Shown: piece by piece, positions 46,566 to 48,189 of the stretch
Layout of the letters: each line of letters opens with the position of its first letter
How positions within the stretch are numbered: position 1 is the stretch's first letter
Origin: Eubacteriales bacterium
Lineage (GTDB): Bacteria; Bacillota; Clostridia; Oscillospirales; CAG-272
DNA: 64,000 bases
NCBI GenBank assembly: GCA_045605765.1
Contig: JAZUQQ010000057.1
Coordinates: forward strand, 49,421 to 113,420
Reading direction: 5' to 3'
Program-made: the position numbers and the translations under genes
The notes under the pieces: generated by a model
Databases searched by the model: none
What the model was told of the DNA's origin: nothing
Seen by the model: only the letters and a program-made list of their open reading frames with translations

Positions 46566-46611
46566 CTTGACAAGCACTGACTTAATTAAAGACACCAAAG
46601 CAATAATAATT

Positions 46612-46661
46612 TTGTCAATTTCCCAAGCTGTATTGACAAATCGGCAGAAATGTGGTACAAT
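46612..46661 (+). promoter_or_regulatory. consensus extended -10 promoter with overlapping palindromic operator
   Basis: TTGACA (46633-46638)-17 nt-TACAAT (46656-46661), preceded by TGG. The palindrome TTGTCAAT-N12-ATTGACAA (46612-46639) overlaps the -35. A third TTGACAA lies at 46567. Confidence 0.75.
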
Positions 46662-46667
46662 ATACAC

Positions 46668-46822
46668 GCTACACAAATTGCATATGTTTATCCGATGAAG
46701 GGAAAATACTTTGGCAAAAAGTGTTTTCTCTCTTTCCTCATACCTTCATCGGTTAGGCATTTGTGTAGCAACAATGAGAGGGAGGCATTTTTTCGGTGCG
46801 TTCCTCCGGGAGCGCACTTTTT
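46668..46822 (+). promoter_or_regulatory. structured 5' leader ending in an intrinsic terminator (attenuator / candidate riboswitch of unknown class)
   Basis: Nested helices: GCTACACAAAT/ATTTGTGTAGC (46668-78 / 46759-69), CCGATGAAGG/CCTTCATCGG (46692-701 / 46743-52) and GAAAATAC/GTGTTTTC (46702-09 / 46721-28). Next come a purine tract GAGAGGGAGG and the terminator GTGCGTTCC-tccg-GGAGCGCAC + TTTTT (46796-46822). The RBS GAGGGAG and the ATG at 46841 follow. Confidence 0.6.
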
Positions 46823-46840
46823 ATATACTGAGGGAGATAT

Positions 46841-47167
46841 ATGAACAATAATGATATACCAAGAAAAATAATAGATATTACCGGCGTAGAACTTACACCC
46901 GGAGAGCCTGCCGTTTGTCTTGGCAACGGAGAGCAAGGTTTTGAGTGTTGTTGCGATGAGTGCGACTACTATTTGCTTTGTTTTCCCGAATTTGATCCAA
47001 AAAGCAAAAGAATTAACAAAACAAAAATCCCACACACCTACTATGACAAAAGTAACGCAAAGGCACTTTTGACATCTGCATATCAAAAGCCTATGCGTTA
47101 CCTTCCGGGAGGTAGAAAAAAGCCTCCCTTGTATATGAACAAGGGAGGTGGCACGGCAATGCCGTGA
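46841..47167 (+). CDS. small cysteine-rich protein (108 aa ORF; conserved-looking core ~55 aa)
   Basis: GAGGGAG RBS 4 nt upstream. The core reads ITGVELTPGEPAVCLGNGEQGFECCCDECDYYLLCFPEFD. The C-terminal half is basic and low-complexity, and it overlaps strong hairpins, so the true end is uncertain. Confidence 0.5.
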   Translation: MNNNDIPRKIIDITGVELTPGEPAVCLGNGEQGFECCCDECDYYLLCFPEFDPKSKRINKTKIPHTYYDKSNAKALLTSAYQKPMRYLPGGRKKPPLYMNKGGGTAMP

Positions 47168-47545
47168 CGGAGGGATTGTAAAAGTAAAAACTTATTGTAA
47201 AACAATCCCTCATTCGCTTTGCGACAGCTCCCTTTACACAAGGCGAGCCTTTTGTTTGTGCAAACCTATTTGTTTGCAAATAGCCATAAGTTTTTGTAGT
47301 CCTTAATTCAGCCTTTCGAACCACTGCATTTGTGGACGCATATGCGAAAGTTATATGCCTAGCACGGCTCGGTGTGATATTGTCGCAAGGCGACAGTGAT
47401 ATGAAAGCCTGTGACTTTCGTGATATTATATTCGCCATCTCAACTCGCTAGTGAATAACACTAGGCATCAGCCGAATATCACTGCGCATCTGCTCTATAG
47501 CAGGTGCGCGTGAGAGTTCCTTTTTTCATATCAGATTGATATTTA
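47123..47545 (+). other. hairpin-dense untranslated region with TGATAT hexamer array (candidate structured RNA or protein-binding array)
   Basis: At least 9 local hairpins, including 10-bp stems at 47123-48 and 47170-211, a GAAA-capped stem at 47338-58 and an 11-bp stem at 47484-509 followed by T6. There is a long-range complement ATGCCTAG/CTAGGCAT (47355-62 / 47461-68). TGATAT occurs 6 times. A G-U pair in the last stem favours the + strand. Confidence 0.5.
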
Positions 47546-47575
47546 ATTTAGAAGGACTTATTATCAGCACACAGA

Positions 47576-48099
47576 TCAAACCACGATTTCGAGCTCTTTT
47601 CGGATAAATTCACCTACTTTTTCTGGCTCGATATTAAGCGAGAACGCAAACTCCTCTTTTATTATTTTTTCCGCAGAACGCAAAACAGATGCGTCCGAGT
47701 CCGACAGGCGTTTACTACTTTCCGAGAGTTCTTTACCTTTAAGATATATACATCCAATCATAAGCAAAAGCTCCTCGTGAGAACCGTTGTGAAGTATATT
47801 ATAAAAGACTGTGCACGCGTTTTTCTATCGTCTATCCAGCTTATACTATTCTCTTTTACGCCATGGAGAATATCGAGTATCTCCTTTTCGGTGAGAACGT
47901 AGCGCATTTTTGCACAGAGCGTTACGTTATCGGTAGCGACGTATATCGTTGACGCTTTGGTATTTATCTGTTCAAGAACGTAGTAATTTCTCTCGCCGAT
48001 CATCGGAGAGAGAGTCATATCCTTAATATCGTTTATCCTACATATTCCGTTTGAGCCGTAAACAACATACTCCCCTACTTTATATTTACATTTATTCAT
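47576..48099 (-). pseudogene. CarD_CdnL_TRCF-family transcription regulator, interrupted by a 1-nt frameshift
   Basis: The N-terminus MNKCKYKVGEYVVYGSNGICRINDI...YYVL is CarD-like. The frame breaks after ..DDRKTRAQSF, and the protein continues in the -1 frame (YNILHNGSHEELLLMIGCIYLKGKEL...). The junction is a T4 run (about 47803-47806 on +). GGAGG RBS present. Confidence 0.7.
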
Positions 48100-48189
48100 A
48101 AGAGAGACCTCCAAAGCAAATTATTTTGTAATAAAAAGGCGTATAGCTTACAACTGGACTTACGCCGTTAAGCTACACGCTGTGCTTGT

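Follow-up and report, generated by a model that had tools for sequence, protein, structure and literature searches.

The window analyzed here is a stretch of 64,000 nucleotides (nt) from a Eubacteriales bacterium, and our subject is the hairpin-dense region that lies within it at 47116-47526, between convergent genes. To its right, on the minus strand, profile matches identify murG, ftsQ, ftsZ, and a CarD-like gene of the division and cell wall (dcw) cluster; to its left, on the plus strand, a small Cys-rich open reading frame (ORF) of 108 amino acids (aa), 46841-47167, runs into the hairpin stretch before it ends at 47167. An earlier sequence-only reading had taken the stretch for one unit. 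Comparison by blastn and with aligned loci divides it instead into three modules, and we read 47116-47526 as a mosaic of a split two-way terminator, a conserved hairpin module, and a truncated array of heptamers and hairpins of the type known from the Rfam family Gut-1. By sequence, this array is a new, degenerate member of that known orphan family. The features of the region are the following.

47011-47115, plus strand: module A, a nucleotide-conserved stretch 3' of the core of the Cys-rich ORF
47116-47148, minus strand: hairpin H1, stem CCTCCCTTGT/ACAAGGGAGG (47123-47148), with a minus-strand T6 at 47121 down to 47116
47152-47166: hairpin H2, CACGGC/GCCGTG, within an insert at 47150-47226
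47170-47211: hairpin H3, GAGGGATTGT/ACAATCCCTC
47214-47224: hairpin H4, TCGC/GCGA
47227-47262, plus strand: hairpin H5, stem GCTCCCTT/AAGG(C)GAGC, then TTTTGTTTGT
47266-47321, minus strand: hairpin H6, CTATTTG/CAAATAG (47266-47283), then a conserved block with TTTTGTAGTCCTTAATT
47326-47345, minus strand: C hairpin, arms GCATTTGT / GCATATGC, loop GGAC
47350-47436: heptamer-hairpin half-array, within the array module 47350-47526
47350: GTTATAT, then a weak hairpin
47374: GTGATAT, then TGTCGC-aag-GCGACA
47396: GTGATAT, then GAAAG...CTTTC
47420: GTGATAT, then seg1, TATATTCGCC (47427-47436)
47437-47482: remnant of the center and second half, CTAGTG/CACTAG (47448-47464) and a seg3-like GCCGAATATCAC (47471-47482) with a lone ATATCAC
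47484-47526: terminal GC hairpin, GCGCATCTGCT/AGCAGGTGCGC (47484-47509), an 11-nt spacer, and T6 (47521-47526)
47528-47542: mini-palindrome, ATATCA-gat-TGATAT

The Gut-1 model (RF01706) matches the array over its full length at 47348-47431 on the plus strand (31.3 bits, E 3e-4), and a second match runs from 47549 to 47450 on the minus strand (17.1 bits). The better of these falls below the family's gathering score of 50 bits, yet Gut-1 is the sole Rfam family with an E value below 0.001 in the region. At gathering score, the Rfam scan of the whole window returned two transfer RNAs (tRNAs) only; between 46500 and 48200, the large ornate RNAs (OLE, GOLLD, ROOL, HEARO, raiA) gave no match at E values up to 10. 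The build of the array is nevertheless that of the family, with four (G)UGAWAU heptamers and three linker-free short hairpins at 47350-47426 and spacers whose hairpin sequence varies while the pairing is kept. The half that Rfam models, expected beside the terminal GC hairpin and co-oriented with an upstream gene or tRNA, is reduced in the window to one GTGATAT on the minus strand, from 47482 down to 47476. Related arrays do reach the gathering score: L054 at 54.7 bits, L003 at 52.2 bits, and 12 of 17 scanned metagenome loci, which together hold 13 matches of 55-75 bits (L207 has two), so that complete relatives score 52-75 bits. The order of hairpin, 10-14 nt, and T5-6 also recurs, in L003, L005, L007, L008, L058, and the metagenome arrays, and the 17-mer GTGATATTATATTCGCC is shared with L011 and with no fewer than 120 metagenome loci. 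The metagenome scan, with the pattern GTGATAT-N12-22-GTGATATTATATTCGC, returned at least 120 loci, mostly from the human gut, and we built the array consensus on 116 unique arrays among the matches listed (hereafter the 116 arrays).

Gut-1 was described from human-gut sequences only, in no sequenced organism and with no function given; its original seed includes GUGAUAU instances, and the unmodelled 3' flank has four AUAUCAC-hairpin units (Weinberg et al., 2010; PMC2864571). In the literature searched, we found no later work on Gut-1 than the 2010 description. The window copy retains the half that Rfam does not model, namely GTTATAT, three GTGATAT units, and seg1; read the way Rfam orients the family, these are AUAUCAC units. 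The reverse units R1-R3 and an exact seg3 are missing, a seg3 with two mismatches survives, and the CTAGTG hairpin is unrelated. Because two metagenome contigs with identical FtsZ carry the same truncated array, this form is stable in the species; these same-species contigs are 99% identical over the region and provide no comparative signal. Probably the window array is a remnant, either in decay or half functional, whose role by now is mainly that of a stable 3' structure.

The hairpins themselves are robust. All 11 claimed arm pairs lie at the coordinates given for them, the 11-bp stem with one T·G on the plus strand and the pair CGCTTTGCGACA/TGTCGCAAGGCG with one mismatch. The plus strand of 47110-47580 (471 nt) folds at -162.3 kcal/mol against -117.2 ± 5.6 for shuffles (z -8.1) and the minus strand at -153.6 kcal/mol (z -6.65), and no shuffle was as stable as the real sequence on either strand. 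The reported six-copy cluster of TGATAT/ATATCA was recovered as well, at 47375-47542 (168 nt); it is the densest in the window, which holds 73 copies in 64 kb and a next best cluster of 3. The pattern GTGATAT-N12-22-GTGATAT-N12-22-GTGATAT occurs once in the window, where 0.00 occurrences were expected (100 shuffles). The six copies do not, however, form one array: four (three GTGATAT and the ATATCAC at 47476) lie in the conserved element, which also has the degenerate GTTATAT at 47350, and the pair at 47528 and 47537 lies outside it, beyond the T-run, with no counterpart in any related array. The mini-palindrome that this pair forms, a perfect 6 bp situated past the T-run and before the stop codon of the carD-like gene, recurs unchanged in the same-species contigs and is probably not part of the element. 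The long-range complement between 47215 and 47381 is a by-product of two local hairpins with the common stem GTCGC/GCGAC.

Although the sequence-only reading gave no credible ORF here, an ATG ORF of 115 aa, which it had missed, is present at 47091-47438 on the minus strand. This ORF, or the tail of the 108-aa ORF on the plus strand, could in principle explain the conservation as protein coding, and we assign that explanation an almost negligible probability. Both ORFs exist, but neither has a Pfam or NCBIfam match, and homologues of the small protein mostly end at about 67 residues while the DNA beyond remains about 90% identical. The region homologous to the 115-aa ORF ranges from 132 to 269 nt between loci through module-sized indels; with no family match and so variable a length, it is not a credible gene. 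Since the folding z-scores are joined by compensatory changes in a shared module and by flush stems in spacers that otherwise differ, the proposal of a large structured RNA survives as a structured non-coding nucleic acid, not as one large ornate RNA.

The mosaic emerges from blastn of pieces of the window against 83 loci of the small Cys-rich ORF, with the following matches.

46600-46840, leader: 67 of 83 loci
46841-47010, coding sequence: 83 of 83 loci
47011-47122, piece A: 42 of 83 loci
47123-47300, piece B: 28 of 83 loci
47301-47450, piece C: 11 of 83 loci
47451-47580, piece D: 2 of 83 loci

In some loci piece B lies upstream of the small ORF and reversed, and the modules as a whole occur in either orientation and order relative to that ORF. 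They recur in more than 80 loci of uncultured gut Clostridia and Oscillospiraceae. Module A is 87-92% identical in 42 of the 83 loci regardless of reading frame, and protein alignment over it loses conservation after about residue 57; it contains the hairpin CTTTTGA/TCAAAAG (47066-47089) and the palindrome TACCTTCCGGGAGGTA (47099-47114).

By its sequence features, 47116-47262 is a five-hairpin split bidirectional intrinsic terminator of about 145 nt, roughly a third of the region. A GC-rich stem-loop followed by a U-run is found on each strand, as H1 on the minus strand and H5 on the plus strand. The terminator scan lists H1 with 10 pairs, 6 of them GC, and the tail CTTTTTTCTA; the minus-strand tail after H1 reads CTTTTTT, and the A-run with the H1 hairpin is conserved in 13 aligned loci. 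In short-form loci (L007, L012, L025, L037), which lack H2-H4, H1 and H5 make up a single hairpin with A6 on one side and T4-6 on the other, AAAAAAG-CTCCCTTT-acac-AAGGGAG-CTTTT, and the equivalent in L005 was called a plus-strand terminator of 13 pairs by the scan. The long form, with H2-H4 inserted between the two terminator halves, occurs in the window and in L038, L011, L015, L051, and L080. Single differences from the window copy improve two of its stems: L324 has a G where the window has T at 47213, which restores H4, and L325 lacks the bulged C of H5.

The second module, 47266-47345 overall, is a conserved block with a conserved hairpin at its end. The H6 block is kept in L005, L007, L011, L012, L038, and others, and the C hairpin, present in about 30 loci, is the junction of this shared module with a variable outer domain. 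Beyond it the loci diverge: 20 carry a "variant I" and about 8, the window among them, carry the heptamer-hairpin array. Aligned over 20 loci on the strand opposite the small ORF, the C hairpin shows 97% pairing, G·U at 3 positions, and double changes from A-U to U-A. Over the same loci and strand, the shared C/variant-I module is 92.9% paired, and double changes affect 7 of its pairs. In its helices 2-3, G·U cells number about 47, whereas unpaired cells number 14 at most; no shuffle reached these values. A near-invariant U·G sits inside a GAAA-capped 14-bp stem, and in 18 of 20 loci the opposite strand has the more stable fold, by 8.3 kcal/mol. By these comparative data, the shared module behaves as RNA would, on the strand that lies opposite to the small ORF.

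Variant I takes the place of the array beside the C hairpin at L038:3435-3552, L050:2406-2523, and 18 other loci. It comprises the 14-bp stem with the conserved U·G and the GAAA loop together with a TTTAGAG/CTCTAAA hairpin, lies opposite the small ORF, and has no Rfam match; it is apparently an undescribed conserved non-coding structure resembling a small RNA (sRNA). In L065 the 14-bp hairpin alone is inverted in place.

Complete elements, reduced to one consensus from the 116 arrays in the plus orientation of the window, are mirror-symmetric and read in order as follows.

First: four GTGATAT units, each with a different hairpin after it, at a period of 20-26 nt
Second: seg1, TATATTCGCC
Third: a central hairpin
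Fourth: two to four ATATCAC-hairpin units, at a period of 16-22 nt
Fifth: TCGCC-loop-GGCGAATATA (seg2 and seg3)
Sixth: the GC hairpin
Seventh: 10-14 nt, then T5-6

The central hairpin, the two to four ATATCAC units, and GGCGAATATA are found in 98 of the 116 arrays. Heptamers are uniform within one element, and the forward (F) and reverse (R) heptamers change together between elements (GTGATAT/ATATCAC, GTGAAGT/ACTTCAC, CGATAT/ATATCG, GTTATG/CATAAC), as do seg1 and seg3 (TAAGTTTGCC/GGCAAACTTA and GATATAAATCCGC/GCGGATTTATATC); most heptamers fit the core N-Y-G-A-W-R-U. Minimum free energy (MFE) folds pair F1:R4 through F4:R1 into consecutive four-way junctions with no unpaired linker, and a seg1:seg3 helix is a competing closure, mutually exclusive with the F:R pairing. 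What Rfam models is the reverse half as it reads on the opposite strand; the published 77-nt Gut-1 model covers one half of a larger element that is mirror-symmetric. Among 134 distinct F spacers, 75% have a flush perfect stem of 4 bp or more, against 0.6% of shuffled ones; among 62 distinct R spacers, the shares are 73% and 0.4%. Because such stems are frequent in spacers of differing sequence and rare after shuffling, the hairpin structure of the spacers is under selection or constraint. A detector blind to the heptamer sequence found 113 half-arrays across 204 sources and exactly 1 in the window, whereas shuffled sequence yielded none.

Several contigs carry more than one array. Two Gut-1 arrays lie about 310-660 nt apart at L207:4243-4626 and in L229, L273, and L236, and a second half-array with another heptamer (ACGATGT, ATGTAAT, or GCGATAT) stands beside a GTGATAT array at L301:8791-8859, L304:380-431, and L235:7034-7081; GTGATAT thus shares a contig with ACGATGT in L301 and with ATGTAAT in L304. 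Other arrays are linked to tRNA genes, in L207, L213, L214, L211, and 24 other metagenome loci, where the tRNA terminator is the terminal hairpin of the element. In 28 of 120 loci among the matches listed, the tRNA 3' end lies 135-139 nt from the last forward heptamer, across 7 isotypes. The linked tRNAs are always on the strand opposite the window's plus orientation, and the Rfam matches are co-oriented with them.

We give an even chance to the reading that we prefer, in which the region would serve as a structured 3' end or an sRNA on the minus strand, with the heptamers as pairing or recognition sites. Read on that strand, the window passes from the carD-like stop codon over about 65 nt to the GC hairpin, and then through the array and the C module to the H1 terminator. 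We infer a single minus-strand read-out of 47116-47526, which would form the structured 3' end of the ftsZ / carD-like transcript or, alternatively, an sRNA that starts just after that transcript. From 5' to 3', such an RNA would open with the GC hairpin, continue through the truncated Gut-1-type array, whose three to four AUAUCAC heptamers would each stand flush against a different hairpin, pass the conserved C hairpin and sequence block, and reach the five-hairpin split terminator, the last stem of which, with U6, would end it at about 47116. The same terminator block would also end the convergent small-ORF transcript on the plus strand, at H5 and its T-run. In complete elements, the array mechanism that we envisage has two forms: GUGAUAU may pair with the AUAUCAC of the other half to give the four-way-junction ladder of the MFE folds, or the heptamers may be shown between the hairpins as repeated sites for one partner, with N-Y-G-A-W-R-U as the core. 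In the window copy, the partner heptamers are gone.

Among RNA readings, we judge the minus strand about twice as likely as the plus strand that the sequence-only reading had assigned, because the G·U pairs of the shared module, the polarity of neighboring genes and tRNAs, and H1 with T6 as a canonical minus-strand terminator all favor it. The right-hand neighbor is on the minus strand in 60 loci and on the plus strand in 18, and both neighbors are on the minus strand in 28 loci and on the plus strand in 4, as counted from crude ORF calls at loci that are not independent. The argument from a single G·U, on which the plus-strand assignment had leaned, is real but valid for the window copy only.

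A number of observations weigh against the minus-strand reading, beginning with the crude calls and non-independent loci behind the polarity count just given. Promoter scans yielded nothing consistent on either strand and no convincing candidate on the minus strand, and where an array is linked to a tRNA, it is preceded on that strand by a full terminator. The wobble pairs of the window, in the C hairpin and the 11-bp stem, are both on the plus strand; the plus strand folds about 9 kcal/mol better (-157.4 vs -148.2 kcal/mol); and on the plus strand every array has a T-run past its GC hairpin. The reverse heptamers degenerate (ATATAAC 86, ATACAAC 11) while the forward ones do not change to compensate, and half-arrays exist alone, so that heptamer-heptamer pairing is not universally kept. 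Finally, the array stems have 29 G·U and 24 A·C on the F side, and on the R side 9 and 11, while their Watson-Crick pairs exceed 2600; the lack of a G·U excess on either strand would be unusual for an RNA under selection.

The wobbles, the fold, and the T-run, which lies 10-14 nt past the terminal hairpin as T5-6, are also what speaks for an RNA on the plus strand, an sRNA or 3' untranslated region that would run from after H5 through the C hairpin and the GUGAUAU array to the GC hairpin and T6 (47521-47526). To these may be added that the best Rfam match in the window is on the plus strand, that L025 has a clean plus-strand terminator directly after its C hairpin, that several arrays have a -10-like TA(T/G/A)CATAA box 25-35 nt upstream of the first heptamer, and that the F4/seg1 junction, TGnTATTAT, is an extended -10 (the scan lists 47401-47429). 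We nevertheless hold the plus-strand RNA to be unlikely. The G·U pairs of the shared module and its GAAA-capped 14-bp stem lie on the other strand in 19 of 20 loci, the flanking genes and tRNAs are polarized oppositely, and the T-run stands apart from the stem and is therefore not a canonical terminator. The better fold of the G+U-rich strand is a composition effect: we rejected the MFE comparison as a strand test for arrays because each half favors the strand that reads GUGAUAU, G+U-rich strands forming more pairs.

Where the last F heptamer meets seg1 (window 47421-47432; L005:3493-3505; L008:3459-3470), one strand has TGATATTAT, TGATATAAA, or TGATATGAT, each an extended -10, and in the GTGATAT type the other strand reads TATAAT. 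One idea is that the F4/seg1 junction might act as a central bidirectional promoter.

The minus-strand RNA has a further competitor at the level of DNA, in which the region would be an intergenic mosaic repeat with palindromes that function, or come about, as single-stranded hairpins or alike on the two strands, for example as structures of the lagging-strand template or as a target or product of a recombination or replication process, with any RNA incidental. We rate this as improbable, though several features of the arrays fit it. G·U and A·C are equal and both rare in the stems, at about 1.5% of the pairs there. The loops show strong strand polarity, which is mirrored between the two halves: C-GNA-G or C-GNRA-G loops number 43 on the strand that reads ATATCAC against 2 on the other, and GCGAAGC 9 against 0; triloops outnumber tetraloops by 67 to 44, and C-G closes 107 of 111 loops. 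As background, d(GCGAAGC) is an unusually stable DNA mini-hairpin, which makes it a lead here rather than a test. Modules in either orientation and order, the hairpin inverted in place in L065, several copies per metagenome-assembled genome (MAG) with many matches at contig ends, tandem arrays about 310 nt apart, and the fixed distance from terminators of different tRNA genes point the same way. Against a DNA element, no transposase, recombinase, or other protein family recurs beside the 116 arrays, where clustering of neighbor proteins returned only one syntenic Ogt-like group and spurious ORFs that run across arrays; the hairpins in the spacers are not mutual copies, unlike units of REP or of miniature inverted-repeat transposable elements; and the adjacent shared module is RNA-like. 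The loop polarity is equally compatible with RNA, GNRA making up 18 of the 44 tetraloops on the same strand. Collections of phages and plasmids held no match to the region, and a scan of viral contigs for the triple heptamer gave 136 matches, nearly all tandem or coding repeats; as only two of these (L095 and L123) are array-like, we see no link to phages. The missing G·U excess, the strand-polar loops, the decay of heptamers, the solitary half-arrays, and the mixed heptamers together are compatible with a function as single-stranded DNA or on both strands, and the same features argue against one strictly sequence-specific protein that binds the duplex.

Such a protein is what the last alternative, also raised by the sequence-only reading, supposes: an iteron- or operator-like array in duplex DNA for replication, partition, or repression. 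Heptamers repeated in direct and inverted orientation and a core common to most arrays would suit it. We consider it very improbable all the same, as the repeats are spaced 16-26 nt apart (periods of 20-26 nt for F and 16-22 nt for R) without helical phasing, the spacers are co-varying palindromes, heptamers differ on one contig (L301, L304), plasmid and phage matches are lacking, and no protein family recurs by the arrays. Plasmid iterons are phased direct repeats beside a rep gene or origin; here the neighbors are the small ORF, the carD-like gene, and ftsZ, in the dcw context of murG-ftsQ-ftsZ, with no Rep or Par gene nearby. A search for the periodic motif across the 64-kb window found the array at a single site. 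Readings of the heptamer as a Chi-like site, DnaA box, CRP/Rex box, integron attC, or k-turn/box C misfit in spacing, copy number in the window, or heptamer variety.

A more speculative proposal, to which we would lend only minor weight, is that complete Gut-1 elements are a distinct class, either an RNA four-way-junction ladder or an array of single-stranded DNA hairpins at terminators and tRNA 3' ends. As RNA, on the folding models, they may form three to four perfect linker-free four-way junctions of identical 7-bp helices, and we know of no described precedent for such a ladder. As DNA, they may be strand-polar single-stranded hairpins with C-GNA-G loops and no wobbles, tied to replication or recombination; were that so, the annotation "Gut-1 RNA" would be wrong. 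If such a device is real, the window copy would be its half-deleted relic.

The genes on either side deserve comment in their own right. The 108-aa ORF is truly coding, because differences concentrate at third codon positions (738, against 171 and 212 at the other two). Conservation is limited to about its first 65 residues, which belong to a large family of small Cys-rich proteins with 1447 relatives in the database and the core IDITGVELTPGEPxVCLGNGEQGFECCCDECDYYLLCFPEFDPKSK; no Pfam or NCBIfam model matches, and an exact-protein look-up of the ORF found no record. Species-representative genomes gave at least 497 matches, and the 80 loci taken from that scan are all from uncultured Clostridia, Oscillospiraceae, or Eubacteriales of human and ruminant guts. 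There are frequently several loci per MAG, many close to contig ends, and copies include tandem or inverted pairs (L028, L016); coding sequences are up to 94% identical between species-level genomes.

A conserved structured leader precedes this ORF at 46633-46825 on the plus strand. Its elements are a promoter, TTGACA-17-TGgTAcAAT, three stems, nested and clearly supported by compensatory changes over about 30 loci (for P1, GCTACACAAATTGC/GCATTTGTGTAGC vs GTCACACAATCT/AGATTGTGTGAC), and an intrinsic terminator at 46795-46818, just before the ribosome-binding site. No Rfam family matches 46633-46825, and the leader looks like an apparently undescribed riboswitch or attenuator candidate. We rejected the C hairpin as a mimic of the P1 helix, with which it does not co-vary: L010, L012, and L054 differ in P1 and have the same C hairpin. 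On the other side, the CarD-like gene (47576-48114, minus strand) is broken near 47758-47767 into two ORFs, one with CarD_TRCF_RID and the other with CarD_C. Because the two metagenome contigs with identical FtsZ have an intact 174-aa gene, we read the window copy as carrying a frameshift, by mutation or assembly error.

To our knowledge, Rfam has listed Gut-1 since 2010 as an orphan, a "human gut only" motif to which no organism, context, or function was assigned. The present locus and its relatives place it in genomes, those of uncultured Clostridia and Oscillospiraceae from human and ruminant guts. The relatives show a larger element of mirror symmetry, closed by a helix and with heptamers that co-vary, polar with respect to neighboring genes and often at a fixed distance past tRNA terminators. 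Its signatures, the lack of G·U and the C-GNA-G loops, turn the choice between RNA and single-stranded DNA into a concrete, testable question. The neighborhood adds two apparently undescribed conserved non-coding structures, the three-stem leader and the sRNA-like module on the opposite strand. The message of the window alone is modest: the stretch combines a terminator with a degenerate repeat element and is neither a new ornate RNA nor an origin.

Compared with known systems, the region shares traits with each and departs from all of them. Bidirectional terminators of convergent genes resemble H1 and H5, with GC-rich stems that stand between an A-run and a T-run; the window terminator differs in being split by the three extra hairpins H2-H4. 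Repetitive extragenic palindromes (REP), the bacterial interspersed mosaic elements (BIME) of E. coli, and the intergenic mosaic elements of Neisseria (NIMEs) are likewise hairpin-rich modules at gene 3' ends and between convergent genes, in both orientations, of mosaic, variable composition, and in several copies per genome. REP units, however, are near-identical, with a conserved GTAG and the transposase RAYT, whereas here every palindrome is different, conservation is confined to the 7-mer linker, and the 116 arrays revealed no associated enzyme; within these 64 kb of genome there is one array, the units of which are not alike. Plasmid iterons share direct repeats roughly 22 bp apart and differ in that the repeat here is 7 bp rather than 17-22 bp, the spacing irregular, the spacers palindromic, and a rep or origin context absent. 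Decoy and scaffold sRNAs (CsrB/RsmZ with GGA motifs, CrcZ with A-rich motifs) also repeat a short motif between or on hairpins of free sequence; in our elements the motif varies, even on one contig, its complement is also present in complete elements, and no homology was detected. The closest likeness is to the Gut-1 motif itself, in its three to four (G)UGAWAU heptamers, its flush short hairpins of unrelated sequence, and its gut-microbiome source. The window array differs from that motif in scoring 31 bits against a cut-off of 50, in having the unmodelled half, and in having mostly lost the modelled one, and its relatives differ in that the motif is placed here in MAGs of Clostridia and Oscillospiraceae, as half of a mirror-symmetric element.

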